64,000 nucleotides of DNA, taken from Prorocentrum cordatum. Lineage: Eukaryota. The stretch covers positions 248,001-312,000 of the forward strand of contig CAUYUJ010000159.1 of the NCBI GenBank assembly GCA_963575745.1. The letters run 5' to 3'. The notes under the pieces were generated by a model. The model was not told where the DNA came from. It ran no database searches and saw nothing but the letters and a program-made list of their open reading frames with translations. The translations under genes and the position numbers were made by a program. Positions 3,663 to 59,983 of the stretch are shown here, one piece after another. The stretch's first letter is position 1, and each line of letters opens with the position of its first letter.

Positions 3663-4058
<396 letters not shown>

Positions 4059-5600: not shown

Positions 5601-5637
5601 CTTGAGCAAAAATGGTTTGAACCAAAATTGCTACGGA
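5601..5637 (-). other. Full-length dinoflagellate spliced leader followed by a tandem relict SL
   Basis: Reverse complement is TCCGTAGCAATTTTGGTTCAAA (19/22 match to DCCGTAGCCATTTTGGCTCAAG), then immediately CCATTTTTGCTCAAG (14/15 match to SL nt 8-22). Confidence 0.88.
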
Positions 5638-6397: not shown

Positions 6398-6730
6398 GAC
6401 CTGCGATCGCCAGGCGCGCGGCGCGCACGAGCTTAGCCGGCAGATGTGGGCAGGCCTCCCGGGCTCGAGCCCGGTGCCCCTAGCGTGCGCGCCGCTCGCG
6501 CGCACCCCGATGCAGCGGAGATTGCCTGCCGCGAGTGCACCACTCAGGGCGCGTTCCTTGCCCGTCCTTTCCCTTTTGTTCGGCCTCCTCTCCCCATCGT
6601 TCCTCCTCCTCCTCCTCGTCCTCCTCCTCCTCGTCCTCCTCCTACTCGTCCTCCTCGTCCTCCTAGGTGGCTCCGCAGCGGGCCGCGCGCCGCCGCAGCA
6701 TTTTGCCCCGCGGCCGCCGCGGCCCGTGCC

Positions 6731-10213: not shown

Positions 10214-10292
10214 CCGTCGGCAAACTGGTTCATGAAGGCAGCGGAGGAGAAGACAGAGGAGACTGCGGATGATCGAGATACAGATACCGAGC

Positions 10293-11640: not shown

Positions 11641-11732
11641 GCGGGGCCCAGGCCCGCGGCCCTTGAGCGGAGCCCCGCGCGGGGGTGCGCGGGGCCAGAC
11701 TCGCACCTGCGAGAGGCGGAAAGCCCTGAAAG

Positions 11733-11843
11733 TCCTCCTCGTCCTCCTCGTCCTCCTTCTCCTCCTCCTCCTCCTCCTCCTCCTCCTCCTCCTCCTCCTC
11801 CTCCTCCTCCTCCTCCTCCTCCTCCTCCTCCTCCTCCTCCTCT
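11733..11843. repeat. (CCT)n microsatellite
   Basis: Direct reading. Confidence 0.95.
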
Positions 11844-12249
11844 CGTCTCCCAGAGAGCACTGTTTGGGTTCATGTGCAACTCATCGGCGGCCGAGTCGGG
11901 AAAAATCGAGTCGGCGGAAATCGGCAGGCTAGCAGGCCTCCAATGAGAAATCGACACCCGAATCAGAATCCTAAATCGAATCAGATCGGAATCGGGAACC
12001 ATTGAAATCGAATCAAATTGAATCGGAATAGTCGAAGCGAACCCTACCTTCCTCCTCTCCCTCCCTCTGATCTCCTCTCCTCCTGCTGGCCTCCCTCCGC
12101 ATCTCCGTGTAGGGCGCGGGTGCGAGCATGCGCTCTCGCCGCGCGTTGTGCGCAGCGGGCGTTTTCCTCCTCTTCCTCGTCCTCGTCCTCCTCCTCCTCC
12201 TCCTTTCTCCTTCGCCCCCCCTCCTGGTCCTCCTCTTCCTTTTGCTGTG

Positions 12250-33655: not shown

Positions 33656-35094
33656 GCGCCGCGGATGGCGCCTAGCGTCGTCTCTGCCTCGCGCGGGCGC
33701 CGCTGCCCGGCGCGCAGTGCGATTGCGCCGCGCGCGTCGCCCTCGCGTCTAGCTGCGGCCTGATGCGAGATGCCGCGAAAACTCTCGCCAGCGCGGGCCC
33801 CGCGGAGCGGTTCTGACTAGTTTTGAGGGCGCCTCTGGACGGTCGTGGCGGCGTGCGACGGCGGATCTCGGATCGTTCCGTCCCTGGGCGTGAACCGAAC
33901 TGCGCGAATGCTCGCGCGACACCGACAGCTCCTCGCGGCTGGCGACTGGAAGCTTCCTGGAAGGGGGGCGCGCCCCGCGTCGGGGGCGGCGGGCCGAAAC
34001 CGCGCGCGCCACTGCAAGGGGGCGCCCATGGTGAAAAGTGACGCGCGGACCCGCCGTGGCCAGAGCGCCCGCGAGAGCGCATATTCGCGGGGACGCGTCG
34101 ATAATAGCGCGCGCGGGCGCGACGACCAAGCCTCCGCCAGGCAGACGGTCGGGCACCCCGTGAGTCGCGACGAACAGGGCGCGCGTAGTGAAGCGCAGGG
34201 GGCCCGCAACAAGTCCCGAAGCGTTGGGGGGGGGATTGCAGCGTCGCCGCGGCTTCCGAAGTTATGATATCCAACGCGGACTGGGACTTGCCCGCGGGAG
34301 CGGAGGCCAGCGGCGAGGACGGGGCGACGTGGACAACGCAACCGAGCTGCCCCCGCTGGGTCTGCGGAGTCTCGCCGGGCCGCGGGGGCCCCCGTCGAAA
34401 GGCGCGCCAACGCGCCTAGATGCCCGCGGCGCACGAGCCGAGGCCGCAGCGCACGCGTCTCGTGGAGGCGTTCCCGTCGACGCCCGCGGCCTTCGCGTCG
34501 ACGCCGAGGAGGCGGGCGGGAAGCTGCCAACGTTGAAAGGCCAGTGCGTGCGCGGCGGCCTCCCGGACCTGCTGGTTCGTTGCCCGAGACTCCGCCGCCC
34601 CCATCGACATCCGCCCCCGCTGCGGATGCCTCTGCAGTGGAGGAAAACTGCGGGCGGCAAGGAGGAGGTCCGGCCCGTCTGGGGGCTCTCTCGGGCCGTC
34701 TTGAAGCTCTGTTGGGCCGTCTTGAGGTCTTCTTGGGGGCCTCGTGGACCGCTTTCAGGCAAGATTGGGGGCTTCCTGGCCCATCGTGGACGCTGGCAAG
34801 ACCGAAAAAACGAATATGTCAAATGCACGCTTCCGGGGCAAAAATACTGCGATGTTTGTCTTTTGGGGACCCTTGGGGGGGCCTCTTGGGCCTTGGGTCG
34901 TCTTGGGGCCTCTTGGGCCTTGGGGGCCTCTGGTTGGGGGGGGCCATCGAAAACCGCCTTTGGCTCTCTGAAAGCGCTCTTGGGCCTGCTTGGGGGCCTC
35001 TTGGGCCGTCATGTGGGCCCCGGTCCCCCCGTGCCCTGCCGCGGTCCTTGGGCGCGGCCAGGGAGCCTCGTCCGCTGGGAAAAAGAAACAGAGA

Positions 35095-35538
35095 GTGTGT
35101 GTGTGTGTGTGCGTTTCAACTTTGACAATCATTGGAGACATCATTTTCGGCTCCTGCGAGCTAGGGGATGTCTCGGGGCCAGCCACGCATGCAGTATGTG
35201 CGTAGCTAGATTTCAGATTGTCTGTATGCATGCTCCTTAGTTCATGTGCGTAGAAAGATTCCAGGTTGTCTGTATGCATGCTTTCTTTAGTTGCCCTCTC
35301 AGTCCGCCTCGCACGCACCATAGCTTTTCATCTCGAGCCTCCGCTGACGGAGGGTTTAGGGCGCCACTCAAGGCCCGAGGGCCGCAGAGATTCTCGGCCC
35401 CCCGTCACCGCAGGCACGGTTCACACGATCGCTCGAGGAAAAGGGTTTGATCTCTACTGAAGGCCACAGCTGGAGGAGGGTCGACGCCAGGTACCGTGAG
35501 CAATACGTGATATTGAACGAAACTCATCACAAGTGTGT
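35095..35538 (+). repeat. 5' pseudo-LTR of the PLE
   Basis: Same as 41200-41643 except for 6 transitions (offset 6105). Contains an internal ~48-bp tandem duplication (35196-35292). Confidence 0.95.
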
Positions 35539-35614
35539 TTCTGGGGGAGTGGAGCGTGCATCTTCGGACTTCGTGCGCCACGCCCAGACATCCATAGCCC
35601 CCACGTGTCTCAGC

Positions 35615-35974
35615 TCAGCTTCCTTCATCTCGGCTGATTTCACGACCTACGTGTTTCATTTCATAACCTACGTGTCTTATTTCATAATCGACGTGTTGCA
35701 TTTCCACATCTGCGTGGCTCATTTCTTGCTCTACGTGTTTCATGTCATAACCTACGTGTCTCATGTCATAATCTACGTGTTGCATTTCCACACCTGTGTG
35801 GTTCATTTCTTGCTCTACGTGCTCAATTTCACCATCTACGTGTTGTATTTCGCCATCTCCGAAGTTTATGTCACGCTCTACGTGCTCAATTTCATAACCT
35901 ACGTGCTGTATTTCACCACCTGCGTGGTTCATTTCATATTCTACGTGTCCAATTTCATAACATATGTGGTTCAT
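35615..35974 (-). CDS. Antisense 119-aa heptad-repeat (E-M/I-x-H-V-x-x) coiled-coil protein, hypothetical
   Basis: AUG start; 16 heptads with M/I at position a and V at position d; substitutions are mostly conservative (E/D, M/I, V/A/T). Confidence 0.5.
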   Translation of the reverse strand: MNHICYEIGHVEYEMNHAGGEIQHVGYEIEHVERDINFGDGEIQHVDGEIEHVEQEMNHTGVEMQHVDYDMRHVGYDMKHVEQEMSHADVEMQHVDYEIRHVGYEMKHVGREISRDEGS

Positions 35975-35976
35975 TT
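35641..35976. repeat. 21-bp tandem array, 16 units (consensus cataacctacgtgttgcattt), with an 84-bp higher-order period
   Basis: Indel-free 21-nt periodicity; units 2-5 recur as units 6-9. Confidence 0.95.
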
Positions 35977-36096
35977 TGTACTCTATAGGTCAACGGCCCT
36001 GGAGCGGACCCCACTGGAGGTGATAGAACGCAAGGTGTTTTGACGCAAGCATCAGATACGTTGCAGTCAAGATCAGATCGACGGATATCCCAATAT

Positions 36097-37372
36097 ATGG
36101 CTCAACGGATGCGACTTACTACCTTTGCTGGGACGAAGCTATTGGTTGCGATGACACGGGATATCCAGGCCGTTGCAGGATGGTCTTCGGAGCTGGCCGT
36201 CCATACTAACCTTCGCTCGCATAAGCCTTACTCGTCCTCCGTGGCTTCCTTATACTCGGCAGCTCTGTGGCAGGTCCTTTGCCCTCTCCCGTCGGAGGTG
36301 TTCATTGAAGCCGTCCGCACCCTGCAACGTGAAGCTTTGGAGTGTGCGACGGTCTCAGGAGTGTCATCCTATGTTGGCGTGCTCGCTTTGGCTCTCACGA
36401 CGTGCTCGACGATTTGTCGAATCCGCAGCCTCTTTACTGGAGGCCGAAAATCACGGGGCCGAGCCAGACACCTCTGCCATTGTCTTCCACCTGTGCTGCA
36501 GTCTGCGTTTGCACGCCCAGGAGAGGCGGATCTTTGTCAGGCTGTGGAGCTACTCGGTTTTGTCCTCCTCCAGGCTCGGTGCACCCAGGACCCGATCCAG
36601 AAGGTGGGCCACGGGCCCCACGACCTCTGCTTCATATACCAACTGGGCTCCCAAGGGCTCTACATAGGTCAAGGGGCGCTGCTCCGTGGCTCGTCGGCCA
36701 TCTCTGGAGGAGTCGGTCGATTCCGTGAGCATCTTCGTGGGCTCAAATGTGCGTCGCAAGGGATCCCCACAAAGGAGCTCAGCAGGTACCTCAAGTTGGC
36801 CCCTGGTTGTCAGCGATGGCTCCTCATGTTCTTTGTGGCGCTTACACACACATCTCGTGCGCACGCCCTTGAGTGCACATATAGCGTACAGCCGTCCCGA
36901 GGCGAACAATCTACCTAACCCTCACCTTGGGCGTCTTCGGGCTCGCTATCGATCCCACCCTCGAGCACGCCGCCGTCGTGCCCAACGCCGTATACATACG
37001 CCTGTCGCACATGAGCACACAGTACTCCAACAAGCATGGTATGATCGACGTATCGATGCCCAGTGCACTCGACGCCTAGGTTTTTCGGCACACCTCGCTG
37101 CACGACACCGGTGGCAACACCTTCTCCAGCATAGGTTTCATGATCTATATGATATCCTTCTCGCTCGGCATGCTAACGGCCGCCATCTGCACGGACCGCT
37201 TAACATTTATGACCAAGCTTGTTTGCTCCTACTCCTTAGATGGCTTGCTTTATCTACCAACGATGTCGATTGGGATCTTGTGTGTCGACGGCGTAAGTTC
37301 GGGACTGACTACCTCTATGCCCTGTGGGAATTCAATACCTATTTCCTCACTGGATGGACCGAATCCGAGTGA
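36097..37372 (+). pseudogene. PLE ORF N-terminal part: GIY-YIG endonuclease + basic linker (frameshifts at ~36873 and ~37355)
   Basis: FIY(36631)...LYIG(36658)...RFREH...RY...ALE, then after a shift AHIAYSRPEANN, giving the conserved GIY-YIG Y/Y/G/R/E/N residues. A second shift joins the RT frame. Confidence 0.8.
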
Positions 37373-40300
37373 GATCTGCACTTGCTGCGCGTTTGCACTC
37401 AGTTGGTCTTCCCAAGCCAGGTGAAAAGATTATTAAAGTTGATGACGCTTGGGAGGCCCAACGTGTTCGGCATTGGTTGGCTCAGGTCATCCAGCAGGCG
37501 CGCCCGACTAGGCCAGCTCGGGCCAACTGGGCGGTCCGCTTGATACGTTTGATGTCTCGCCCTGTGCTCACGATACGCAAACGTTTTACCGACATCACGC
37601 GAGCCTTTCGCCAGACCGAGTTCACGGAACTCGGTCGCCTCAGCATGTCGGATTTTGCCGCTGCCGCTCGCGGTGATGATATGCAGCGAGCCCCTCAGAA
37701 CGGTCGCATGCCGCTACTCGCACAGTCTACCCCATACCGTGACACTTCTATGTTATCATGTAAGCGATGGCTTGGTACCCAGGGCCTGGATCGGAACATC
37801 TACCCGCCGCATCGCCCCCCTCGCCAACGCCCTACTCCGCAACCCACCCATGACGAACGACGTTATCATGACGTGACGGAGGCTCGCAAACAGCTTGAGG
37901 ACCGAGCCTCTGGAGGCCCATGCGGGACATGCTTTACGGTTGAAGACAAGGACCCAAACACGATTTGGCGGGTCAGCAGTATATATCAGCTAGCACGGTG
38001 GCTTTGTATGCTTCGTCGTGCCCATGATCGTTGGCGTGTGGTTAATACGTCGGTCGATGCTATGCTATCTTGGTATCGATTGCTCTATGACTACACCATC
38101 CCCAAGTCTATGCGTGCACGTGGGGAAGGGGCACTTAACCAAGGACATCTTCCCAACGTTTACAGTACGATTAAGTTGAAGTGCTGGGATGGAGGGGCCT
38201 CGGTACCCAATGGAGGGCGTCATAAATGTACTAAACCTCAACACAGTTGTTTTCGTAACATATGCAGCTTTGTCCGCCTCCCATCCCATATGTTGTATCG
38301 TTCCCTCAGCCGTGCTCTCACCTTCCTGGCGAACCAAGTGCATCCAGGTTGGGCTTTTACTTCTTTAGACACGGCAGTGCCCAGCTTTGTGGCGCAGTTC
38401 ACTCAGCTGACTTCCCACCCGATGGGCGAACCGTGCTGCTGCCGAGGGTGTGGCCGCCGCATGCTCAGCCCAGGTCTTGTGGTCGGGGATGCAGGCCAGG
38501 CTTACGAAGCCATCGCTCTCGACCGCATTTACGGCTGCCTTGATCGCCTGTTCGACCAGCTGGAGTCGGAGAAAAAACAACGCTGTGTTACGGTCATGCG
38601 TACTCAGCGATCTCATGTCTTCTTCGGTGGCGGAGCGGATCGGCGCCTGTGGGACCGTACTGTGTGGTCTCTTAAAAGTATCCGTCGTGCTCTTGGGGGC
38701 TTTCTAGGGATGAGATGGTTTGTCATCTGTGGCCTCGTCGTTCAACAAGTTAGGGGCATCCTGATCGGAGGCCCCCTCAGCGGGGCCATTCTGCACGCGG
38801 TACTGAGTGATTTAGAGTTCCAGGCTGACAAGAAGTTCCCCAGGCGTCGTCGGCATGTGGCTACAGGCAGGTACGTGGATGACATTATACTAGCGTCCAA
38901 GGTGCGCTGCAGTCGGTGTCTTAAACGTATGGTCCATCATGTCTATGGCTGCACGGTAAAGTTTGATTTCACCGACTCCGTATGCCCTAATACACGCACA
39001 GTCGCAGTTCCCCACCTCGAGGCCACCTTCTTCCTCACCCTCACTACCGCCCACACGTACATCATACACAAGAATGAGGCGTATGCGTTCACAGGGAACA
39101 TCACGTCCCTCGCTAAGCAGTCTATCCTCCCGTTTCTAGGCTCGTTCACTCCTAATCAACTTCAACAGCACCGAGCCGAACTGCGTGGACGTTTGCAACG
39201 CTGGAGAAACTTAAAAGTGTGTGCGTTCAATTGGTTGATTCTGGTATCTACTGATGTTTTGATGTATCTTCGGTTGGGTTATCATGAGAAGCATATTCGA
39301 AGGATTTGGCATTCTATAGCACCACCTTCTAAGTTTATGGAAATAAGCCAGACAGCGATCCAACTCGTACTCTACACTTCCAGAAGTCTGCGAACCCCAC
39401 CCGAGTTGCTTGTAGCCCTTTCCTCTCAAAGCCTCCCGAGCCAAGATTCGTGCCCACCCTTGAGTGCACCTTCGAGCTTGACCCAGCCCTCACCCGTGCC
39501 GATGTTCAGTTCGTGGCGCAACAAGGGCATCGGCAAGGGCGGCAAGTCTGGAGGCGCGGGTGGTCCGTATGGTGGCCCACGCGCCCCACGCTACAGCGGC
39601 CCCCAGCAGCGGAACTGGGGATACGATCGTGGCGGCGGTGGTGGCGGCCAAGGCTTCGCGGGCATGCTTGGCCAGATGACCTCAGTCATGGACAACATCG
39701 CTGCCCTGGGTGAGCTTACGCGGGTGGGTCACGCGCTCTCGCAGGCTCAGCAGCCCCACCCCCAGGGTAGTGGCTCGACGCCCCCAGCCTCGGGCACGGC
39801 GGCAGTACCGGGTGCAGCTGAGCCCGCAAGGGATCTGGTCAAGGCGCTGACTGAGGTCCTGCAGACCAACGCTCCAGGGGATACCAGGCTCCAGCAGACG
39901 GTGGAGCGCTTGCAAAGCCTCGTTGGGACAGGTACTCCAGTGTCAGGATCAGGCTCGCAAGCAGCGTCTGGTGCAAACTCCCTGGAGTCCAACCCTGTGA
40001 TCCAGCAGATGCGGGCCAGCCTCACCAGCATCCAGGCGACAGTTGATCAACATGGTCAGCAGATTTCCTCCCTTACCTCTACTCTTTCTTCGACAGCCGA
40101 GGACTCACGTGCGACCCGTGAGATGATGGAACGCATGTTGGGAACGCCGCAGCAGAATCGGGAGACCCTCCTTACCCCACCAAGGCTCTTGCGACAGACG
40201 GAGTCTCCGCCTGGCCCTGGACCCTCAGCTGTACCACCACGTGCACCTACGGCCGCTGAGGAGGGACTTGCTGATGGCACCCCGCTGTTCAGCCCCATGA

Positions 40301-40611
40301 TCAATGCGGCCACCCACAGCTCCGCACTGGAACGGCTTGGGATCAGCGCCACGCGCGCCAACATGGCCCAGCTGGCCCAGGAGATCACGATGAGCGAGGG
40401 CGCATCCCTTCCTTTCGCGGAGTGGTGGACCCAGGCTTCGAGGTGTAAGTCTGTGGGACAATGGGGTACCAAGCTTCAGGCCTTTGGCCTGCCGCAAGCT
40501 GAGCTTGCCAACATCAGCAGTTTCAACAAGGTGGGTCAGATGCTCTTCGCCCACCTGCTGAAGAGTGGTGCGTGGGCTCAGACTGACCAGCAGTATACCC
40601 TCCTTCAATGA
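37324..40611 (+). CDS. PLE reverse transcriptase with fused 369-aa Gly-rich/coiled-coil C-terminal extension
   Basis: RT motifs as listed for the element (YVDD 38872-38883). Cys/His inserts KCW..HKC..HSC and CCCRGC. The extension begins at Met 39502. Confidence 0.85.
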   Translation: MGIQYLFPHWMDRIRVRSALAARLHSVGLPKPGEKIIKVDDAWEAQRVRHWLAQVIQQARPTRPARANWAVRLIRLMSRPVLTIRKRFTDITRAFRQTEFTELGRLSMSDFAAAARGDDMQRAPQNGRMPLLAQSTPYRDTSMLSCKRWLGTQGLDRNIYPPHRPPRQRPTPQPTHDERRYHDVTEARKQLEDRASGGPCGTCFTVEDKDPNTIWRVSSIYQLARWLCMLRRAHDRWRVVNTSVDAMLSWYRLLYDYTIPKSMRARGEGALNQGHLPNVYSTIKLKCWDGGASVPNGGRHKCTKPQHSCFRNICSFVRLPSHMLYRSLSRALTFLANQVHPGWAFTSLDTAVPSFVAQFTQLTSHPMGEPCCCRGCGRRMLSPGLVVGDAGQAYEAIALDRIYGCLDRLFDQLESEKKQRCVTVMRTQRSHVFFGGGADRRLWDRTVWSLKSIRRALGGFLGMRWFVICGLVVQQVRGILIGGPLSGAILHAVLSDLEFQADKKFPRRRRHVATGRYVDDIILASKVRCSRCLKRMVHHVYGCTVKFDFTDSVCPNTRTVAVPHLEATFFLTLTTAHTYIIHKNEAYAFTGNITSLAKQSILPFLGSFTPNQLQQHRAELRGRLQRWRNLKVCAFNWLILVSTDVLMYLRLGYHEKHIRRIWHSIAPPSKFMEISQTAIQLVLYTSRSLRTPPELLVALSSQSLPSQDSCPPLSAPSSLTQPSPVPMFSSWRNKGIGKGGKSGGAGGPYGGPRAPRYSGPQQRNWGYDRGGGGGGQGFAGMLGQMTSVMDNIAALGELTRVGHALSQAQQPHPQGSGSTPPASGTAAVPGAAEPARDLVKALTEVLQTNAPGDTRLQQTVERLQSLVGTGTPVSGSGSQAASGANSLESNPVIQQMRASLTSIQATVDQHGQQISSLTSTLSSTAEDSRATREMMERMLGTPQQNRETLLTPPRLLRQTESPPGPGPSAVPPRAPTAAEEGLADGTPLFSPMINAATHSSALERLGISATRANMAQLAQEITMSEGASLPFAEWWTQASRCKSVGQWGTKLQAFGLPQAELANISSFNKVGQMLFAHLLKSGAWAQTDQQYTLLQ

Positions 40612-40629
40612 GCGCCCGCCCCAGCTCCC

Positions 40630-41049
40630 ATGAAAGCTTCTGTTTTTGACACTTCTCTGCTGGCGACGTGGAACGATGTGGTCTGGCCAATGATACGCCT
40701 CTTCTTTGTGCTGGTGCCCCTCGTTATCTTTGGTTGGACGGCTTACCAGGCGTGCCTCTTCGTTGGCTTCGCTCGTTTTTCGGCAGAGGAGATTCTCACT
40801 TTCTCTATTCAACGTGTGGTTGCCATCGTTCCCTTCCTGGCGATCCGCGTACTTGCCTCCCTTACGTGGCCAGGACTTGGATCGTGGGCTAGTTCTCTAT
40901 TGACGGGTACCTTTGGAGGCTCTGACCCAAACACTGAGACCCCACATATTCTGGACCTCCCCGTGTACGGTGATCGTGAGAAATGGGCTTGGTTCGCGGC
41001 GGTGGTGCAGCCTGTCCTGGTGGGGCTCTGTGCATGGCTCCATCACTAG
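40630..41049 (+). CDS. 139-aa predicted multi-pass membrane protein inside the PLE
   Basis: AUG 18 nt after the RT stop; about three hydrophobic Trp-rich segments (aa ~17-48, 63-93, 119-137); ends 150 nt before the 3' pLTR. Confidence 0.6.
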   Translation: MKASVFDTSLLATWNDVVWPMIRLFFVLVPLVIFGWTAYQACLFVGFARFSAEEILTFSIQRVVAIVPFLAIRVLASLTWPGLGSWASSLLTGTFGGSDPNTETPHILDLPVYGDREKWAWFAAVVQPVLVGLCAWLHH

Positions 41050-41199
41050 ACCCGTGAACCTATTGCCTATCATGCCTCTCCTCTCCGCTAATCTTCTGAG
41101 TGATGCCTGTTGCAGGTGTGTGATAGCTTCTGCCTTACGTCTGAGGCTTGAGTACTGTCGCAGCTGTCTTTTCCCTCCCCTGACCTGTTTGGACGGGTT

Positions 41200-41643
41200 G
41201 TGTGTGTGTGTGTGTGCGTTTCAACTTTGACAATCATTGGAGACATCATTTTCGGCTCCTGCGAGCTAGGGGATGTCTCGGGGCCAGCCACACATGCAGT
41301 ATGTGCGTAGCTAGATTTCAGATTGTCTGTATGCATGCTCCTTAGTTTATGTGCGTAGAAAGATTCCAGGTTGTCTGTATGCATGCTTTCTTTAGTTGCC
41401 CTCTCAGTCCGCCTCACACGCACCATAGCTTTTCATCTCGAGCCTCCGCTGACGGAGGGTTTAGGGCGCCGCTCAAGGCCCGAGGGCCGCAGAGATTCTC
41501 GGTCCTCCGTCACCGCAGGCACGGTTCACACGATCGCTCGAGGAAAAGGGTTTGATCTCTACTGAAGGCCACAGCTGGAGGAGGGTCGACGCCAGGTACC
41601 GTGAGCAATACGTGATATTGAACGAAACTCATCACAAGTGTGT
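41200..41643 (+). repeat. 3' pseudo-LTR of the PLE
   Basis: Direct repeat of 35095-35538; runs into (GT)8 at 41638-41653. Confidence 0.95.
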
Positions 41644-41963
41644 GTGTGTGTGTTGGTGAACAGTCGCGCACGAGCGCGCTCGCAATGCTCGTGTCCCAGC
41701 CCCCCTACCCTGCCTCGGCTGCGCCCAAGATTCAGGTCCCTCCTTGTCTCGCCTGCGCTCAAAGATCGCCCATCCTTCCCCTGCTCTCCCGTGCCGCCCC
41801 CCTTGCGCGGACGACGGATGGACGACGCTGCACAACACCGAACAGCAAAGGGCGAACGCCGAACGACTGGCGACGACCGAGCCCCGACCGAGAAAGGTCC
41901 GGCCTGCGGAAGGAGACCTGAAGATCCGCTACAATGCCTCCCAGAAAATGGAGCGGGGCTGGA

Positions 41964-42098: not shown

Positions 42099-43265
42099 GG
42101 AGAACAGGTGCTCCTGGTCTCGGAACCGATCCGGGCATCGCATGCTTGGATTTTCTGTCACAAGCTTCCCGTCGCACTCCCCGAGGCGGCCGTTCTTGGA
42201 GGGCCCGGGCGCAGGCCCGCGGCGAGACGCCTCCGCCCCCGGAGTCAGCCTTCCAAGAGGCTGGAGAGGTGGCGGGAAGCTGGCGTCTCGGGCACGACTC
42301 CGAGAGGAGCGGGCGCGCGAGCGCGCGCACGCACAGCGGGGGCGTCTCCGAAAGGGGGGGGGCTGTCCAAGAGGGGGAAGGTCGCAGAACATGGCCCGAG
42401 GCATCTGCACGGAACCTTGAGGGGGAGGAGGAAGAGAAGGAGGAGGAGGAGGAGGACGAGGAGGACGAGGAGGAGGAGGGGGGCATGCCCCGAGCAGTGC
42501 GGTGATGCGCCACAGAAGCCTGCGCTCTCAACCTGGATCGGGAAGCTCCCCCATCTGCCACGGGGCGGCCCATGGGTCCCTGCGTGGATAATTAAGCATC
42601 TGCACGGAAGCCCCAAGCCAAAAAGGAGAACGAACGAGCGAGGGAGGCGACACAGAGTGAGAGAGATATAAAGCACGAGGCATGGCGCGGCTACGTCTGG
42701 TGCGGAAACCCTCATCAATTCTCGCGAACGTCCAGGACAAAGGGGGCCAGGGGAAATACTGAACAAAAAGAGGGCGCCATGACATCCAGGGTGACATCAT
42801 CGCCCCTGCCATGATATCCGCCCGCCCCTGGTCATCACCACCGTCTTGGCCGCCCCCGAGAACACTTCGAACCTCAATGCTCTGGAGCACTTTAGCATGA
42901 AAAGAAGAAGTCCTGAGGGAAATGGGTCCTGGTCCCCGGGGCCTTCCCCCGGGACGAGAATTTCATCCTGATCGTTTTCTGACAATCCCGGGGCCCGTGG
43001 AGGGGGAACAACTTCAGGACCCGATTTTTGACGAAGCCAGGACGCGGACAACATCGGGTGAGGATAACTCGAGGATCTCTGTGATCAGGCGGCAGTGGAG
43101 GATGTCTCGGGCGACGCGGCCTTGTCACAGCGGTCCGGAACGGTCTGGAACAGATTTTTCGTCGTCCTTGCCCCGTCCGATCCCAGGGCCCGTGAAGGGC
43201 CCTCGGGAAACCGGAAGCGGCGAAAAGCCTCGGGACCGATGTCCCTGGGGGGCCCATTCCTTCAT

Positions 43266-43412: not shown

Positions 43413-43699
43413 CTAGCCTGGCCCCTCCTCGTATCTCGTCCTCCTCCTCCTCCTCCTCCTCCTCCTCCTCCTCCTCCTCCTCCTCCTCCTCCTCCTCCTC
43501 CTCCCCCTCCTCCTCCTCCTTTTGCGCCGCCCTGGGGGGCCCCGAGTCCGGTGAGGCCCCCGGGCAAGCGGGCGGCGCGCCGCGCGCGCCCGCGCCCAGC
43601 GGCCGCCGCCCGCTGCTGGCGCTGGCGCCAGGCCGCCGCCGCCGGCGGGCCGCCTCCGCCGCTGGGCCGCCGAGCGGGCGCCGCTGAGCCGCCGCGGGG

Positions 43700-50944: not shown

Positions 50945-53900
50945 TCAGCCAGCACGGTGCCTGTCCGCCGCGAAGCGGCCCCACCCGTGACCCTCGAAAT
51001 AAGGGTCGTAGGGCACATAGAAATCCTGCACCTGTGGCGGGACCTCGGGGACCTGACCGACTTCCAGCAAATCACAATTACGTACAGTATGAATGAGCGC
51101 CTGGGCAACAATCTTACATAACTGCGAAGGATATTGCTTTGCTGCTGCAGTACGAAAAACGCCATTCCCTCGGACCCCGACAAGCTCTTCGGGATGTGAG
51201 GTGTGGGGGCATTTGCCCCTGCCTGGCAACTGAGCAACTAAATCACGAAACGTCGGCACATTAACGCACAACATGGTAGTTGGTTTCTTAGACCGAGCAC
51301 CACACGTACATTGATCTAAATTCAGAAACCTGATGTCAGCACGAGCTCTAAAACCATACACTGCACCCATCTCGGGGAGGCGCCAGATCGAGGGGAGGTG
51401 AGGGGCCTCCGGTTCAAGAGGATGTTCTAAAATACAGGCAGCTCCTACAGCCGCACAAACGTACACGACCTGAAGCATAGTCTGCAACAAACGATTGCCG
51501 AGCATAACCTGTTTCCATTCAGAGGGCGAGCGGGCCACTAGGCCCCATAAAAATTCCCTGGACCGCAGGATACGAGGCTTCAAACCCCCATTAGGCGGTG
51601 GATTCGCACGGCCCTTGGACCAGGTCTCGCATGGGGGCCCTCCTACAGCTCCGAGGGCCTGCCCTGTCCACAACATGTCTAATATTTTATCGACCGAGGC
51701 TTCTACTGTAAGGTCGCCTCGGTCAGGACTATTGGCAACGTCGATAGATAACATTACCACGGGTACTCTCGCGGCCATCTGAAGCATTTCAAAGTGGGCT
51801 TGCACGTCGTCTGCCCGACGTTGGCCACTGAAAAGATGCAAGGAAAATCGCACTTCTGACGGTGAATTACAGAACACGGCGGGGGCATCTTCATTCTGGT
51901 CCCGTCCGCGCTCGACGCCGTCAGTCGTGGCTCTGGCAATGTTAGCCTCGACTGGGCCTCCCAGCACAGGTCCAATAAAGGCAACTGGCGGTGCGGTAGC
52001 TGCATTCCGACATTCCCCCCGCCCCCGACCAGACCTCGCCGCCCGAGCATCTTCCTTCCGCAGCTCCAGCACTCGCTCAACTGGCATGGGCTTCAAATGG
52101 TGCGCAAGCACCGTGAGGCATCGGCTCGAGCCGAAGCGGAGGTGGCGAAGTAGCCGCCCTCTGGTGTGCCAATCTTGGCCGCAGGCGTGACAACAGGATC
52201 CCAGTGCCAACGCTCCTGCTAGGTCAAACTCTGGATGCGCAAGAGTGCGGTGCCTTCCCCACGCCGCCTTGGTATTAAACACTTCTTCGCACTCTCTGCA
52301 CGGAAACACGACATTGTCAGCAACTTTTTTGAGGACGGGGGGTACGGGGAGATTACCACGCTCGCAAATGGCAACTGGCTTAGATTGCCACACAGCAACC
52401 TCGCAGCTCGCCAAGTGCTCTGCCATGGCGCCTCTCTCCGCCTCTCTACACCAAGAAGTCCATTTTTTGGGGCAATCTCGGGCTACGCCAATCCACCACG
52501 GCAAATCACCGACAGGAGACCACTCGATCGGGATCGTGATCCGATCATACATCCACCAGATGTCTTGCCTCACAAGATACGCCCAACTATTCTTAACACT
52601 GACTAGTGCGTCAAGCATGTGCAACAACCCGTCCGATCCGAACCTCAAGACTTTTTCCAAAAACCGAAGCCTCCTGAGGCGCAGGGTGACGAGAGCAGGG
52701 AGACGGCGGCATCTGAGGTAAACCTCAGGCGTCGACCAATCACACACATCGTCGAGGTCCTGCCTCCGAAGGCCCACGGCAGCCCTGAGAGGGGCCATAA
52801 ACGCAGTTTCCAAGTACTTCTGATTACCTGCATTGAGTGCGGACCATACAGCACCATGGAAGAGCACTCGGCTGTGGCAGAGAGCAGCAGCATACTTGAC
52901 ACGGGTGTCAACAGGTAAATCGTTGCTACGGGTGAAAACCGCCTTCTTCAGTCCCCCGAGTACCCCCAACTGAGTGTGGTGCCTACGCGCAAGCTCCGCA
53001 TTCATAGCACCCGAATCTTGCACCATAGATCCCAAGTGCCTACACACGCTAGCAACAAAAACGGAACGCTGGATCGCAGGGACCCACATCTCCCCCTTAA
53101 ACGCGGCTATCTTCGCTTTAACAACCTTCTTGCCCTCGCCGATAGGGTGGAACAACAGGGTCGATTTGCCCTCCCCGTAGTTGACGACAAACCCCCTCGC
53201 CGTCATCACTTGATGCACAGCTGTTACGACAACTTCGGCCAACTTGCAGCAGTCTCGTGCCTTGGCACATGCCTGCAGCACTGCAAGATCGTCCACATAC
53301 GAAGGTGACCCTATGCGGCTGTCCAACTGCTTGTCGCGGCTGGTGAAGGTGCGTCCTACCCGCGGGCACATGTCTTCAACGTTTAAGTCGATACCTTCTG
53401 CGAAAAACCTCATCCTCAACTCCTCATGCACGGGGGCAAAAGCGAGGGTAAAAAAGAAATCTGCAGGGGGCATGCCCGGCCTTGCTCCCAACGTCGCTTG
53501 TGCCACGGACGTAGCATCTTTTACCTGGAACCAAGTGCTCGAGTTGACATCGGCAACTGCATCTCTCAAGTGCGGGTTACCTACCCTGTCGAACACAGCT
53601 GGCTCTGCCAGCAACTGTCTCATCACCCCTTCAAGAGCTAGCGGCAACTGCAGATTGTCGATGATTTCCTCCAAGTCCTGCTGTGCTGACGGCAAAGCGG
53701 TCAAAAACTCACGAATGACTGTGTGAAACGCTGCTTTTAGGTCCGTGAAAAAAAGCACAGACGTATACCCCAGATGCCTAGCAAGGTCCTGAAAAACCCT
53801 TACTTGAAGCGATGCACCCGCCGTGCCTCTTCCTGAACGGCCCCCGTGCTGATCACAGTCCAACAGGACCGACGCAACGTCATGGATTTTGCGCCGTAGG

Positions 53901-55918
53901 AACTTGTGGTGATGCTTACAGACGTGCACGCCCAACAGGATCTCCCGAAAGTTTTTTAACAACCGAGCATCCCCCTTTTTGTACAAGTCGTGCGCCACCC
54001 CACCCTTCCATGCCAAGGGTTCCCGGCATGCCATCTGTACTTTTAAGACGAGTGGCAGCAGAATCTGTGCACTGAGGTCTGGTGCGGCCTGATACAGATC
54101 ATTGGTGCACAAATCGTGCCCTGCTGCCCTGCGCCGCGCCGCACACTGGATGTCGCGCTGCAGTCCCGCTAAAGAATACAAGTCTGCCAACTCACGATGC
54201 CCGCTCGAGTGGAACTGCTGCTGCTGTTCATTATAGCGGGCCACGAGCTCTGGTACTGTACAAATCTTGGCTCTCTCAGTGGCTGCGAAGTGCTCTAAGA
54301 GCCCTCGTGCCAGGGCCTCACGTGACTCGCACGGCTGGCCTTCCTCGTTCACCCTCATAGGCAACACGTTTTTGTCCCCAGACTTACGCCCACCCCCAAA
54401 GGCAAGCAAACACTTAACTCCAGACCACTCCACACGGCCATCTCCTGAGTTAATAGCATCATTGATTTCAGTGGCCTTTTCTTCCAGGAACCGAGTGCGA
54501 TCACTCCGTAGCTTACGGCGAATCACATACTGCGAGGATCTCAGGAAAGCTACGCAAGCCCCGTGAAACTCCTGAACCCCGTGGACCTGATCGACCCACA
54601 ACCGAGCAGCAAACGTGAGGATGCCTACAGCCGAGTCAAACTCAGGAAGCGCCTCTCGAACAGCTGCCACCTGCGGGTCATCATGTGCCTTGATGAGTGA
54701 CGCAGCAAAAAACAGGATAGGCCTAGCGTCTTCCCCTTTATAGGCACGGAGCACTCCACGCACGGTCCTCCTGAACCTGATACCCCACAAGGTTTCATCC
54801 CGAACATAGCTTTTGGTGGGACCCGGCTTGGTTTTACGAAAGTGACGCTCCGCGCACTCCTGGAAAAACTTCGTGATCATACTGAAATGCTGGTTCACGT
54901 CTACTGACCAATGCACGCGTGGTGCAGACTGCAGGTCGCTTCTAAAAGCCTGCTGCTTCTCAGGATCCCGCATAGCTTCTTTGCCCAAGACGGGGCATGC
55001 CTTTTTTACGTCAAACTGCTCAGCCCATTGCAACTTCACGTATGCTGGGAAGTGATCCTGATGACTGCGCGCAACATCAAAGTCATGCAGCACTCCATGC
55101 TCAATCACATGTCCAAGCCAACACCTCGGCGTGCACACGTAGTCGACACGATGCTTAGCTCCCTGCTTATTGAGCGTGTAAGACGGGGTTGGGGAGGGAC
55201 CGAAGGTGGAGGGGGCGCCCAAGCCATTAGCAGACAACAAACTATTGAAGAGACCCCCGTTACTGTCCTCCTTGGCTGCCTGATGCGACCCGATAGCTTC
55301 TGTTGGATTAGCACCTACTTTAGCATTGGCATCGAGCAAGAGAATGTCCACCCCGAACTTGGCTACGCTGCGCGTGGTCTCCTCCCACCACTGCTTGCGC
55401 AACCTGAGCGGGGCCTCTGGACAGGGACCGTGCCCCACCAGCACGACAGTGCGCCAGCATGGAGCATTGATTTTAACAACTAGCAGGCGCGGGCAGGCCT
55501 GCACCACGATGCAGTGCCTTGGCTTGAGAAAAACAGGTTTCCCCCCCACAGTGGCGTATGGAACCTTGAGGTTGACCCATAACTCGCACCCAAAATTCTT
55601 TCCCTCCTCCGCCCCCGATGCCAGGCAGTAAAATTCGTCGGCAGTGCGACTGCCGCGAGGCGTCCTCGCCTCCTGCACGCCTACGAGCAACGCCGCTGCT
55701 TCCTGAAACTGTTGCCTCAACCATTGGCCTCGCAAGACAGTCCTTTCGCCCTTTACCGTATCCTGCGCTGTCTCAGCATTATACGTGACAAGTATCATGG
55801 AGCGTTGCACCGCCTTTTGAACCTCTTCGTCGAGCTCTGGCTGCAAACGTGTGGCAGGCAAGGCGCGCACATATAAGCCAGCTCCATCGCAACACATGTG
55901 CTGGGGCCGACAAGGCAA
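50945..55918 (-). CDS. LINE-DNMT ORF2 main part: APE + RT + 2 C2H2-like fingers + C5-MTase
   Basis: APE: VTYNAE, VQEAR, LDAN, RVDY, QDHFP. RT: AAGHD, LYKKG, FREI, TDLKAAF, GARPG, YVDDL, HLG. Finger: CRECEEVF...HRTLAH. MTase: LHLFSG (I), SIDV (II), GGPPCETWS (IV, catalytic Cys), LEHP (VI), KKPT (VIII), YP..LC (X). Confidence 0.92.
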   Translation of the reverse strand: MPCRPQHMCCDGAGLYVRALPATRLQPELDEEVQKAVQRSMILVTYNAETAQDTVKGERTVLRGQWLRQQFQEAAALLVGVQEARTPRGSRTADEFYCLASGAEEGKNFGCELWVNLKVPYATVGGKPVFLKPRHCIVVQACPRLLVVKINAPCWRTVVLVGHGPCPEAPLRLRKQWWEETTRSVAKFGVDILLLDANAKVGANPTEAIGSHQAAKEDSNGGLFNSLLSANGLGAPSTFGPSPTPSYTLNKQGAKHRVDYVCTPRCWLGHVIEHGVLHDFDVARSHQDHFPAYVKLQWAEQFDVKKACPVLGKEAMRDPEKQQAFRSDLQSAPRVHWSVDVNQHFSMITKFFQECAERHFRKTKPGPTKSYVRDETLWGIRFRRTVRGVLRAYKGEDARPILFFAASLIKAHDDPQVAAVREALPEFDSAVGILTFAARLWVDQVHGVQEFHGACVAFLRSSQYVIRRKLRSDRTRFLEEKATEINDAINSGDGRVEWSGVKCLLAFGGGRKSGDKNVLPMRVNEEGQPCESREALARGLLEHFAATERAKICTVPELVARYNEQQQQFHSSGHRELADLYSLAGLQRDIQCAARRRAAGHDLCTNDLYQAAPDLSAQILLPLVLKVQMACREPLAWKGGVAHDLYKKGDARLLKNFREILLGVHVCKHHHKFLRRKIHDVASVLLDCDQHGGRSGRGTAGASLQVRVFQDLARHLGYTSVLFFTDLKAAFHTVIREFLTALPSAQQDLEEIIDNLQLPLALEGVMRQLLAEPAVFDRVGNPHLRDAVADVNSSTWFQVKDATSVAQATLGARPGMPPADFFFTLAFAPVHEELRMRFFAEGIDLNVEDMCPRVGRTFTSRDKQLDSRIGSPSYVDDLAVLQACAKARDCCKLAEVVVTAVHQVMTARGFVVNYGEGKSTLLFHPIGEGKKVVKAKIAAFKGEMWVPAIQRSVFVASVCRHLGSMVQDSGAMNAELARRHHTQLGVLGGLKKAVFTRSNDLPVDTRVKYAAALCHSRVLFHGAVWSALNAGNQKYLETAFMAPLRAAVGLRRQDLDDVCDWSTPEVYLRCRRLPALVTLRLRRLRFLEKVLRFGSDGLLHMLDALVSVKNSWAYLVRQDIWWMYDRITIPIEWSPVGDLPWWIGVARDCPKKWTSWCREAERGAMAEHLASCEVAVWQSKPVAICERGNLPVPPVLKKVADNVVFPCRECEEVFNTKAAWGRHRTLAHPEFDLAGALALGSCCHACGQDWHTRGRLLRHLRFGSSRCLTVLAHHLKPMPVERVLELRKEDARAARSGRGRGECRNAATAPPVAFIGPVLGGPVEANIARATTDGVERGRDQNEDAPAVFCNSPSEVRFSLHLFSGQRRADDVQAHFEMLQMAARVPVVMLSIDVANSPDRGDLTVEASVDKILDMLWTGQALGAVGGPPCETWSKGRANPPPNGGLKPRILRSREFLWGLVARSPSEWKQVMLGNRLLQTMLQVVYVCAAVGAACILEHPLEPEAPHLPSIWRLPEMGAVYGFRARADIRFLNLDQCTCGARSKKPTTMLCVNVPTFRDLVAQLPGRGKCPHTSHPEELVGVRGNGVFRTAAAKQYPSQLCKIVAQALIHTVRNCDLLEVGQVPEVPPQVQDFYVPYDPYFEGHGWGRFAADRHRAG

Positions 55919-55925
55919 CGTGAAC

Positions 55926-57905
55926 TCAGCATGGTTCGAAAATGGAATACTGTTGTTTGTCAGCTTCTGGCAAATCGAGCAACCAATTCCATTCCAGCTC
56001 GGGTGCGTGGTAAAGCTGCTGCACTATCCATGGGGGAGTGCAGTCATATACAAAATCACGAGTAGACTTGGCCAGATCGTCGGCCATCTCGTTCCAACAA
56101 TGCTTGTTATGTCCGTAGACATGCAGAATATGCACTGGCACACGGGCGGAAGCAATCTTGTAAATGTGTCTTGCCAGCGCTCCCAGCTTGGGTTCAGCAT
56201 GCGGATACTGCTTGCCGAGCGTTATGGCTATGGCCACTTCGCAATCAGAAAATATCGTGACGGGGTAAAGCTCACACTGCTCGCACTGCTGCATGGTATA
56301 GCTAATCACCCAAATCAACGACCAAATCAAAGCCACCGTCTCGGCGGTGATCGAACTGACATCTTTTTCGAGCTGCATTCCAATCGTGGCACAGACGGTC
56401 CCGGCCAAAAATCCCAAAAACCGAACATCTCCTTCTTCGTCCAAGCAAGTTGCTACCATTGCCCAACCGCTAAGTCCTCGCTCTGCCGTTAGAGAGCCGT
56501 CTGGAAACAAAGCAATGGGACCCATCGGCACCTCGCTAGGCGCAGCCGCCCCCAGCGCGAACTCCGCCTCCGCCTTGAGCTGGACTTCCCCTACCTCCCT
56601 CAAAAGGCAAAGAGGCGGCATCTCACCAATGCATCGAACGATCCGATCGGCACCCGAGAAATCGCATTTGGCATAGCCGTCGATGCCCACCAGCAGCGCC
56701 TCTAAACTTATGACTGTTTTTGGTGTAGTGCAGGCCTGACCCGATCCCCCATCCTCGGGCAAACCATCGCACTCATCAACAACAAACGTGCGAACCTCGG
56801 TCTCTCCCCAAGAGACTCGAGTTCTGCTGCGCTCGGCGGAAGCGGAGGCCGCGCTGGGCATGATGCACGTGCCTGGCGACTCGCAAACGACTTGAAAACT
56901 CGGACTGCCAGCGCTGACCGTAGACAAGCATAGGTCCCAGCCTGTCACGGAGCTCTCGTCCGAAGCGGTGTCGTCTCCCCCCCGCCGCCCAAGCTCGCCC
57001 ACGCAGTCCCACCCACCCATATCGCTATCGGCAGATGCGTCAGACGCGCACGGCGAGCATATGATCCAACCTTGCTGCTCCGCAACTGGGCTCCCAGCAC
57101 TCAGTTGCACGAAGCTCGTGTCTGATGCATCTGCATACAGGTCGTCATCTGTGTCATATTCATGCACGCCCGAAGCCCCAGCGTGCCCAGCCATGTATCC
57201 AAATGACATGCTGGAATCGAGTGAAACGTTATCGTCCGTCATCTGAGTGCCTGCTGCCTCTGCAACAGGCTGCGTCTGTGCTGCCGAGCTGTCTGCTCCC
57301 GCTGACGGTTGAAAGTCATGCGCATCGTTAAAGGCATGCTGCAGTTGCCTGGGCGTGAGCGGATCTTCAAAATGCAGGAAAGACTCCCAGAACAGATTCG
57401 CTCGCGTCCTGGCTGCATCCCCTTCGGCAGTGGTTAAAAGCGACATGCCCGACGCCTCTGCTTGCCACTGATCCCGCGTCATCTGCAGTGCGGCAAGGGC
57501 GTGTACGATATGCTCGTGCCACTCATCAGCGTGCGTGCTATTAACTGTCCTACGCCTCAGACGGTTCAACCTGCTAGTGTACTCGTCACGATCATGCTGT
57601 GCCAACGCCCAAGCACGGTCACATATATCGCGAGCTGCTATCACGCATGCCTGTGCTGACGTGGCAAGCGGCGCAAAGATGGCACTGGTACGAGTTTGCC
57701 ATGAGACCCAGGCAACGCACTCGTCCATCCAACTATCATACGCTACATCAATGCCCTGCATGTGGGCCATGGTCGACCACGGTCGGCTCTGGCCTGCAAG
57801 TGATCTGGCTAGCACGCTGGCTGCGTGCTCGGCTGCACCCATGCCCAGGTGCGCACTACAAGATTTACGTGTTGCAAAAAGGTCGGGATGATATTCCCGC
57901 CGCAA
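55926..57905 (-). CDS. LINE-DNMT ORF2 N-terminal part including RNase H; joined to the APE-RT frame by a one-nucleotide shift near 55947
   Basis: FPDGS...GWA, SITAETVAL, IFSDC, HVYGH..H.WNEMADDLAK. The two frames overlap open over ~55926-56023. Confidence 0.82.
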   Translation of the reverse strand: MRREYHPDLFATRKSCSAHLGMGAAEHAASVLARSLAGQSRPWSTMAHMQGIDVAYDSWMDECVAWVSWQTRTSAIFAPLATSAQACVIAARDICDRAWALAQHDRDEYTSRLNRLRRRTVNSTHADEWHEHIVHALAALQMTRDQWQAEASGMSLLTTAEGDAARTRANLFWESFLHFEDPLTPRQLQHAFNDAHDFQPSAGADSSAAQTQPVAEAAGTQMTDDNVSLDSSMSFGYMAGHAGASGVHEYDTDDDLYADASDTSFVQLSAGSPVAEQQGWIICSPCASDASADSDMGGWDCVGELGRRGGDDTASDESSVTGWDLCLSTVSAGSPSFQVVCESPGTCIMPSAASASAERSRTRVSWGETEVRTFVVDECDGLPEDGGSGQACTTPKTVISLEALLVGIDGYAKCDFSGADRIVRCIGEMPPLCLLREVGEVQLKAEAEFALGAAAPSEVPMGPIALFPDGSLTAERGLSGWAMVATCLDEEGDVRFLGFLAGTVCATIGMQLEKDVSSITAETVALIWSLIWVISYTMQQCEQCELYPVTIFSDCEVAIAITLGKQYPHAEPKLGALARHIYKIASARVPVHILHVYGHNKHCWNEMADDLAKSTRDFVYDCTPPWIVQQLYHAPELEWNWLLDLPEADKQQYSIFEPC

Positions 57906-58065
57906 ACCAGGTGGAGAGGTGCCAGCTGTGGCTCCTCATCATTACCTGCCAACAGAGGCGTCATGGGCACACCTGCCCAGTCAGTAGTGAACGAACTCCT
58001 CGAGGCTGTCGACGGTGCTGCAACATCCCTGCGTGCATCGTCTTCTGGCTCGAGTCTGGTCGAAC

Positions 58066-59898: not shown

Positions 59899-59983
59899 CG
59901 CGCGCGCCCCAGTCACCAGCAATGCAGCTGAAACTGGCCAGGGGCGCGGCGCCTAAGCCCCGAGCTCACAGGCACTTCGGATG

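Follow-up and report, generated by a model that had tools for sequence, protein, structure and literature searches.

What kind of genetic element lies between two 444-bp direct repeats in a 64,000-nucleotide stretch of DNA (positions 248,001 to 312,000 of contig CAUYUJ010000159.1, hereafter the window), and do the open reading frames (ORFs) that accompany its reverse transcriptase (RT) belong to it? An earlier note on this DNA, made from the sequence letters, had proposed a dinoflagellate Penelope-like element (PLE) of the Naiad/Chlamys type that carries a virus-like set of accessory genes. Our analysis leads us to read positions 35095-41653, with a probability of roughly 0.7, as one insertion of an autonomous PLE with an N-terminal GIY-YIG nuclease, a member of a large undescribed family of marine protists whose host here is most probably a dinoflagellate.

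Craig et al. (2021, PMC8557442) reported PLEs whose nuclease lies at the N terminus in animals, the green lineage, and slime moulds, and our comparisons with known elements draw on the main text of that paper. In the literature searched, we found no dinoflagellate PLE with an N-terminal nuclease and no PLE with a membrane ORF. Nor did we find there a conserved set of Cys and His residues in the RT, the particular C-terminal extension, or an in-frame membrane ORF behind one stop; the alignment figures that accompany PMC8557442 may show Cys motifs in the RT.

Boundaries and reading frames of the insertion

The repeats themselves delimit the element. Repeat comparison places the upstream copy at 35095-35538 and the downstream copy at 41200-41643, both on the forward strand, as are all features of the element described below unless another strand is given. 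The direct repeats recognized in the earlier note are nearly perfect, with 438 of 444 bases identical, and the six differences are all transitions, three of them at CpG sites. The downstream copy is the true 3' end of the element, and the upstream copy is a partial tandem copy of that same 3' end, which is the pseudo-long terminal repeat (pseudo-LTR) typical of PLEs. The two are spaced 6105 bp apart, the length of the full element unit (35539-41643), which comprises a 5' leader, ORF1, ORF2, and a 3' region that ends in GTGTGT. Both pseudo-LTRs open with a (GT)n run, at 35095-35112 in the upstream copy and at 41199-41217 within the element, where it marks the start of the repeated 3' region. 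The GTGTGT end of the right-hand copy continues into further (GT)n at 41644-41653, which from the junction we read as the remainder of the target microsatellite. Unique sequence reaches up to 35094 on the left of the element and resumes from about 41654 on the right, and the insertion site, in the one insertion seen, is (GT)n, that is, (CA)n on the opposite strand.

GC content is 0.557 in the element unit and 0.597 in the rest of the window, and the element is the only copy found in the window when four relatives are used as tblastn queries. One metagenome scan returned a single related locus, the contig L001, in which the internal (GT)n is also found and in which the 3' repeat continues into 5' body sequence. 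Neither a hammerhead nor any other Rfam family is detected at E<=1 within 34900-41800; across the whole window nothing reaches Rfam gathering scores and no tRNA was found. No relict of a spliced leader was found inside the element.

Between the repeats, the window copy holds three overlapping open frames, at 35989-36915 (frame 1), 36668-37369 (frame 2), and 37309-40608 (frame 1). Three relatives found by a word-based search (P0001, P0002, and P0003) cross all three pieces in one ORF when aligned, and tblastn locates the frame changes of the window copy at about 36870 and 37337. We checked both breaks by placing contigs of four public runs (X1-X4) on the element. At the first break (36870-36871), every covering contig has two additional bases, GA (depth 34 of 34 in X1, 4.4 of 4.4 in X3, and 3.86 of 3.86 in X4; the X2 contigs do not cover 36870). 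At the second (37336-37338), nearly all contigs have one additional base at 37336/37337, either a C (depth 23.1 of 32.4 in X1 and 3.16 of 3.16 in X3) or a G (5.92 of 32.4 in X1). Because other copies carry extra bases at these sites, we conclude that the family has one ORF1, from which the window copy lacks two bases and then one. Because each site is a short repeat of one or two bases, the breaks may be real slips or assembly errors; unless they are assembly errors, the window copy reads as broken by the missing 2 bp and 1 bp.

Across the family, ORF1 is about 1,500 aa long and consists of a helical N terminus, the GIY-YIG nuclease, a Lys/Arg-rich linker, a region alignable to the telomerase RNA-binding domain (TRBD), the RT, and a C-terminal extension. 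In the window copy, piece a (35989-36915, frame 1) covers the N-terminal helical region and the nuclease; piece b (36872-37336, frame 2) holds the end of the nuclease with a conserved Asn (36890-36910), the Lys/Arg-rich stretch (36956-36991), and a linker that lacks CxC; and the first part of piece c (37309-39408, frame 1) holds the TRBD-aligning region and then the RT, whose thumb runs to about 39408. The order of nuclease before RT given in the earlier note is therefore correct, and the division of the window copy into three frame pieces had escaped it. The first in-frame ATG of piece a is at 36097, with a 21-bp tandem array just upstream. In many full-length relatives, alignment of the N-terminal 100-250 residues reveals a hydrophobic stretch and a conserved GGRK/GRR ahead of the nuclease.

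The reverse transcriptase and the nuclease

The RT carries the expected catalytic core: motifs A (38485-38511), B (38755-38784), and C, YVDD (38866-38892), are conserved, and the Asp pair D524/D525, in the numbering of the 1100-aa frame piece c, is present in 69 of 69 sequences. The structure model of this piece has a predicted local distance difference test score (pLDDT) above 90 over most of residues 1-700. When this model is compared with the Protein Data Bank (PDB) by Foldseek, ranks 1-17 are all telomerase RTs (E 1.7e-10 to 6.5e-6), followed by a group II intron RT (2.5e-5) and then by retron, DRT9, LINE-1, and R2 enzymes. A second aligner also puts telomerase RTs in the top 16 places (Z 13.8-18.9, 330-459 residues aligned), with R2 (Z 13.6) and group II RT (13.4) level with the weakest of these 16 and about 5 Z below the best. 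The telomerase alignments begin at about model residue 86 and so take in the region that matches the TRBD. Sequence identity to telomerase RTs is 9-15%, and the best match of a PDB sequence profile is the Tetrahymena telomerase RT (E 0.0014). Such a ranking is what would be expected of a PLE, because PLE RTs form the sister group of telomerase (PMC8557442); the structure matches listed for the RT model contained no PLE structure. The distance of 93 residues between motif A (D394) and motif B (G487), where the model has extra helices and strands, fits a predicted insertion-in-fingers domain.

The earlier note had pointed to extra Cys and His residues in the RT fingers, and these can now be narrowed to eight positions, each conserved in 94-100% of the sequences covering it (65-74 in number). 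Four of them (C292, C307, H312, and C314) lie between RT1 and RT2, in an insert at 38170-38271; two (C378 and C381) form a CxxC at 38437-38454, just before motif A; and two (C534 and C537) form another at 38908-38925, just after motif C. They may form one or two metal sites.

The nuclease motifs, located by alignment of relatives, are GIY at 36631-36648, YIG at 36658-36675, R..EH at 36715-36732, and a catalytic Glu at about 36871. Six columns (Y80, Y88, G90, R107, H111, and E158) are invariant in all 19 sequences aligned, and one Asn is nearly so. No Cys is conserved in this part, and H111 is the sole conserved His column among the 19; because no other Cys or His column is kept, the family has neither the CCHH motif nor the Zn-finger linker seen in other PLE nucleases. 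The structure model of the domain has a mean pLDDT of 86.9, and against 48,161 PDB chains its top four matches are all GIY-YIG enzymes: I-TevI (Z 6.7, root-mean-square deviation 2.3, 74 residues aligned), T4 EndoII (Z 5.8), PD-T4-3 (Z 5.3), and UvrC (Z 4.8). Lower-ranked matches include Slx1, HIGLE, Eco29kI, and Hpy188I.

Beyond the nuclease, the Lys/Arg-rich stretch is followed by a DKD motif (37939-37962) ahead of the RT core, in which D213 is present in 56 of 57 sequences, K214 in 53, and D215 in 55. The linker has no CxC motif, as the earlier note had suspected: none of 480 linker columns is more than 50% Cys/His in 23 relatives (one column is exactly 50% Cys), and the stray C.C found in 4 of the 23 linkers falls at unaligned positions.

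The C-terminal extension

The C-terminal extension reported in the earlier note is present as a part of ORF1, at residues ~700-1100 of the 1100-aa frame piece, and has three parts, all of which align in relatives of 17-35% identity. The first (39439-39810, residues 711-834) is rich in Gly, Ser, Pro, and Gln, has a pLDDT below 50, and is predicted to be disordered; it occurs in relatives too. The second (39982-40140) is a long helix, residues 892-944 (896-944 in the model), predicted to form a parallel three-stranded coiled coil. The third (40276-40608) is a domain that is compact and helical in the model, where pLDDT is about 90 or higher from residue 990 onward, and bears a WW...K...QW motif whose residues W50, W51, K58, Q62, and W63 are conserved among relatives. 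Of the 20 proteins with this motif, 14 have the ORF1 stop 46-50 residues after it, and the other six have it 4-61 residues after. In a quick, unrooted RT tree of 23 sequences, the extension occurs in several deep branches and is missing from one long-branched group. The end domain has no match in Pfam or among PDB sequences, and the PDB sequence profile of the whole extension finds weak coiled-coil look-alikes only (best E 0.041).

The proportions of non-synonymous and synonymous differences (pN and pS) between the window and L001 are 0.31 and 0.62 over 131 codons of the extension. Together with its conservation in other copies, this indicates, at the level of sequence comparison, that the extension is under purifying selection.

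Modelled in three copies, residues 835-1100 form an interface with a score of 0.57 (individual runs 0.58, 0.45, and 0.57), and the best of three controls scores 0.00. The predicted contacts are made by residues 892-944, in parallel and in register. In calibration, 21 of 30 proteins known as one-chain pairs and 0 of 23 known as single chains reached the mark, but this calibration used two copies and our model three, and coiled coils can score high generically. The partner pLDDT is low, at 42-43, and at least 24% of contacts are common to the runs. We regard it as support for a trimeric coiled coil rather than proof of one.

A membrane ORF behind a single stop codon

ORF1 ends in a single in-frame TGA (40609-40611), found both in the window and in L001 and conserved in position among relatives. 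Behind it, in the frame of ORF1, lies ORF2 (40612-41049), which encodes a small protein with three hydrophobic stretches. Counted from its first ATG, at 40630, it is 139 aa long (40630-41049), with the hydrophobic stretches at residues ~15-46, 54-82, and 119-137. A downstream membrane ORF had been noted before; the arrangement behind an in-frame TGA had not. Nine homologues of 57-98% identity were found, family members are 120-140 aa long, a core of SAEE.LTFS.QR is invariant, and six share the same LHH before the stop. In L001 the order is the same as in the window, with the ORF1 end followed by ORF2, about 150 bases, (GT)n, and the repeat region. Against L001, pN is 0.22 and pS 0.73 over 138 codons, which gives a corrected ratio of about 0.1 with synonymous sites near saturation. 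Because ORF2 is conserved and its pN lies well below its pS, we take it to be real coding sequence, and by this comparison it is under purifying selection.

How ORF2 is expressed is less clear-cut. At both loci where the junction is visible (the window and L001), ORF2 shares the frame of ORF1 behind exactly one TGA, and that frame survives a 3-base indel in the spacer between the two, which is otherwise poorly conserved. These two features suggest read-through that would add a membrane anchor to some ORF1 molecules, so that ORF2 may be a read-through tail instead of a separate gene. Against this stand the lack of a stable RNA structure after the ORF1 stop (z 0.42 and -0.52) and a G as the base following the TGA. 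None of 178 relative proteins is an ORF1-ORF2 fusion, which, like the missing structure, would be natural if ORF2 were a separate small gene translated from its own start, either the ATG at 40630 or an internal Met. In a dinoflagellate, such a gene could be expressed by spliced-leader trans-splicing at an upstream AG, of which there is one 8 bases before the ATG, or by re-initiation after ORF1, and 8 of 10 aligned sequences retain the internal Met at residue 21. The shared frame and the frame-keeping indel speak against it; L001 has no ATG at the conserved ORF start, and some of the M starts in databases may be alternative start codons picked by gene callers. We therefore hold a separate gene to be a serious contender that falls somewhat short of even odds. 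That the extension and ORF2 merely ride along, or are frames open by chance that do nothing for the element, hardly seems credible: a known domain was found in neither, but motifs, stop position, and frame are conserved across relatives of 17-66% identity, and in both regions synonymous change clearly exceeds non-synonymous change. Two further readings of the TGA were rejected, selenocysteine for want of a match to a selenocysteine insertion sequence (SECIS) in the Rfam search of 34900-41800, and a sense codon since the preceding 1100 codons contain no in-frame TGA.

The 5' leader contains the 21-bp tandem array, about 16 units at 35637-35976 by tandem repeat finder. An ORF of heptad character on the opposite strand (35615-35974, -), which the earlier note had counted as an accessory gene, lies in this array, as do open frames on the forward strand; the consensus unit is stop-free in four of six frames. 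The heptad ORF obtains weak matches of coiled-coil type in Pfam, all below cut-offs, and we reject it as a gene in favour of a by-product of the array. What remains of the proposed multi-gene accessory set is thus a conserved extension and a conserved ORF2, both present in other copies and with pN below pS against L001; the extension turns out to be part of ORF1, the heptad ORF an artefact, and ORF2 perhaps a read-through tail.

Relatives and host

The family is large. An HMMER search of 1.84 billion representative proteins returned 640 matches at E<=1e-3, 309 at E<=1e-10, and 66 at E<=1e-30; full-length members are 1,100-1,830 aa long with 20-41% pairwise identity, and some relatives sit on contigs of 0.24-2.6 Mb, that is, in assemblies of eukaryotic size. 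Run X1 alone contributed 222 contigs that place on the element, 52 of them at >=99% identity, 69 at 95-99%, 52 at 90-95%, and 49 below 90%, a spread which implies that the family is multi-copy with a range of ages. The three further runs, which are marine or plankton metagenomes, contain near-identical pieces. Among the differences between X1 copies (window 35000-41750), C>T (65 places) and G>A (37) predominate, beside T>C (39) and A>G (29), a pattern that fits the decay of methylated cytosines.

Mobile elements are poorly catalogued in dinoflagellates, whose genomes are huge and rich in repeats. The proposal that this lineage is a dinoflagellate one gains from one feature of the window and loses from the names of its relatives. 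At 5601-5636 on the reverse strand lies a relict dinoflagellate spliced leader, a full form with three mismatches followed by a truncated form with one, the longer motif being expected 0.00 times by chance (100 shuffles); no long ORF follows it. We take such a tandem relict to be the mark of a retroposed dinoflagellate mRNA, here presumably one that was retroposed twice. The only labelled relatives, on the other hand, are four EukProt entries under Pyramimonas sp., a green alga (P0053, P0157, P0158, and P0175): two are ORF2 homologues of 72% and 63% identity, and two are RT pieces of 62% and 42%. These labels conflict with a dinoflagellate host, and they may reflect contamination, a family shared by both groups, or transfer between phyla. 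Culture transcriptomes are prone to cross-contamination.

Classification and rival explanations

In nearly every trait tested, the layout appears, from sequence and structure models, to be that of Chlamys, the group described from green algae, Chara, spike mosses, and Physarum (PMC8557442). The main text of that paper gives Chlamys a GIY-YIG nuclease without CCHH or CX2-5CxxC that keeps R, H, E, and N; a Lys/Arg-rich stretch; a DK motif without a fixed third residue; a long stretch between motifs A and B; pseudo-LTRs; a bias toward insertion in (CA)n or (C)n; and no canonical hammerhead, a ribozyme that most Naiad and Chlamys elements lack. Lengths of 3.3-8.2 kb, increased by internal tandem repeats that are likewise on record, also agree, and some Chlamys elements have a C-terminal extension (Chlamys-1_cBra) or lack CxC (Physarum_Pp1). 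The present family differs in lacking CxC in 23 relatives and in its eight conserved RT Cys/His; in an extension built of a Gly-rich stretch, a coiled coil, and a WW..QW domain, which is not Josephin-like; in a conserved membrane ORF behind one in-frame TGA; and in an apparently alveolate host.

The other described systems are less close. Naiads, from invertebrates, share the nuclease ahead of the RT, pseudo-LTRs, and the lack of a hammerhead, and have an insertion-in-fingers domain and microsatellite targets, of which the present family has a putative counterpart and one instance, respectively, and some of them use an in-frame UGA, read as selenocysteine (PMC8557442); they differ, by the same account, in having CCHH, a Zn-finger linker, DKA, a (TA)n preference, and a short single ORF, and no SECIS was found here. 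The placement in a Naiad/Chlamys-type group stands on the N-terminal GIY-YIG domain, the telomerase-like RT, the pseudo-LTRs, and the (GT)n target, without the CxC motif, but the statement that this group consists essentially of single-ORF elements was too strict, since Chara elements are described with C-terminal extensions and an additional gag-like ORF (PMC8557442). Athena/Terminon PLEs and other bdelloid rotifer retroelements also combine a PLE-type RT with extra ORFs, including coiled-coil ORFs (PMC5408684, PMC8557442); they usually have no fused nuclease and are telomeric, and their extra ORFs are unrelated to those found here as far as tested. Telomerase RT is the best structural match, including the region before the RT core, and has a long insertion between motifs A and B, whereas the present family is mobile and multi-copy and has a nuclease and terminal repeats.

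Several points weigh against the reading of the insertion as a PLE with an N-terminal nuclease in a dinoflagellate, beyond the Pyramimonas labels. Its place in the PLE clade rests on layout and fold, the (GT)n targeting rests on one insertion, and ORF2 is known only within the subfamily near the window copy. In Pfam, neither ORF1 and ORF2 nor the nuclease piece nor any of 16 relatives scores above a cut-off; the RT has a weak RVT_1 match below the cut-off (E 0.0079), and neither the nuclease piece nor the 16 relatives match the GIY-YIG family. Foldseek finds nothing for the nuclease model at E<=0.001 (best E 0.86), and its Z scores in the PDB comparison are middling, below 8. We nevertheless consider the assignment of the modelled N-terminal domain to GIY-YIG nucleases safe, because the fold matches agree with the invariant residues despite the middling Z. 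The CxC motif that defines Naiad/Chlamys is absent from the family, as far as the aligned relatives indicate.

Might the family, then, fall outside PLEs proper, as a deep RT branch of the telomerase/PLE group that gained its GIY-YIG domain independently? The missing CxC and an RT that RVT_1 barely matches would accord with such a history, as would the eight RT Cys/His, which the main text of PMC8557442 does not mention for PLEs, and the same paper considers several separate fusions of the nuclease to PLE RTs possible. However, an independent gain would have to reproduce a nuclease without CCHH, a Lys/Arg-rich stretch, a DK motif, and an A-B spacing that all match Chlamys, together with pseudo-LTRs, a (CA)n-type target, internal tandem repeats, and the lack of a hammerhead, and Physarum_Pp1, a Chlamys relative, is also without CxC (PMC8557442). 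We find this origin quite improbable. The host offers a different alternative, a prasinophyte green alga (Pyramimonas or a relative), in which case the element would be a Chlamys-type PLE within the known host range. All four labelled relatives bear the name Pyramimonas sp., and the window is GC-rich (~0.51-0.72 in 2-kb bins), as are many green algae, but such a host would leave the tandem relict spliced leader at 5601-5636 (-), not expected by chance, without an explanation. A green-algal host is unlikely in our view, and a dinoflagellate probable.

Possible mechanism and implications

If the insertion is a PLE of this kind, its mobility may be pictured as follows. The nuclease would nick (CA)n/(GT)n DNA, and the GU-rich 3' end of the element RNA would pair with the nicked repeat and prime reverse transcription at the target site. 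A second template, or continued copying, joined at the internal (GT)n by microhomology, would then produce the upstream pseudo-LTR. By analogy with Penelope and Chlamys-3_cRei, in which the upstream repeat holds the transcription start (PMC8557442), this copy would carry the promoter. The coiled coil of the extension would probably trimerize the enzyme, as the model suggests, and the Gly-rich stretch and end domain may conceivably hold RNA. ORF2 would be produced on its own or else by occasional TGA read-through, in which case a fraction of ORF1 would be anchored in a membrane.

Both accessory features have counterparts elsewhere. In LINE-1 ORF1p, a trimeric coiled coil is joined to the RNA-handling part of a retrotransposon, and in read-through of the retroviral gag-pol type, a second module lies in frame behind a single stop. 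These are functional analogies only, with no relation in sequence or fold shown, and they differ from the present case, in which the RT itself carries the coiled coil and what lies downstream is a membrane segment. It is tempting to imagine a PLE moving toward a virus-like life, with trimers formed by its tail, membrane anchoring by read-through, and ribonucleoproteins on membranes or vesicles that pass between cells. If this were true, the occurrence of close relatives under a dinoflagellate and a green-algal label would be explained by horizontal transfer and not by contamination. We consider it a very long shot. The nucleic-acid-packaging and virus-like components envisaged in the earlier note are not supported, with no gag or capsid domain found and no relative among the viral contigs scanned with the RT core and ORF2.

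A large family from marine protists, probably dinoflagellates, would bring alveolates into the host range of PLEs with an N-terminal nuclease and provide a test case for what aims the nuclease at microsatellites, a role proposed for the CxC motif (PMC8557442), since in the one site seen here the insertion is in (GT)n without CxC. The role of accessory domains in PLEs could be approached in the same family.

Other features of the window

Elsewhere in the window, a 923-aa open frame at 7937-10705 (+) contains an AP-type endonuclease domain (Pfam Exo_endo_phos, E 2e-5) and has no PDB sequence match; it is flanked by open frames at 6437-7933 and 10709-11929 and is probably a LINE-like retrotransposon (LINE, long interspersed element). 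Three long overlapping open frames of 1692, 669, and 718 aa at 50948-59965 (-), the middle one with an RNase H domain (E 1e-5) and the 1692-aa one without a match in Pfam or PDB sequences, are possibly another large retroelement. Simple repeats account for further open frames: a long (GA)n-type microsatellite at ~3540-4290 gives frames of Arg-Glu and Leu-Ser repeats, and (GAG)n/(CTC)n arrays at 42419-42497 and 43417-43545, which form an inverted repeat ~930-1000 bases apart, give frames of poly-Glu, poly-Gly, and poly-Pro.

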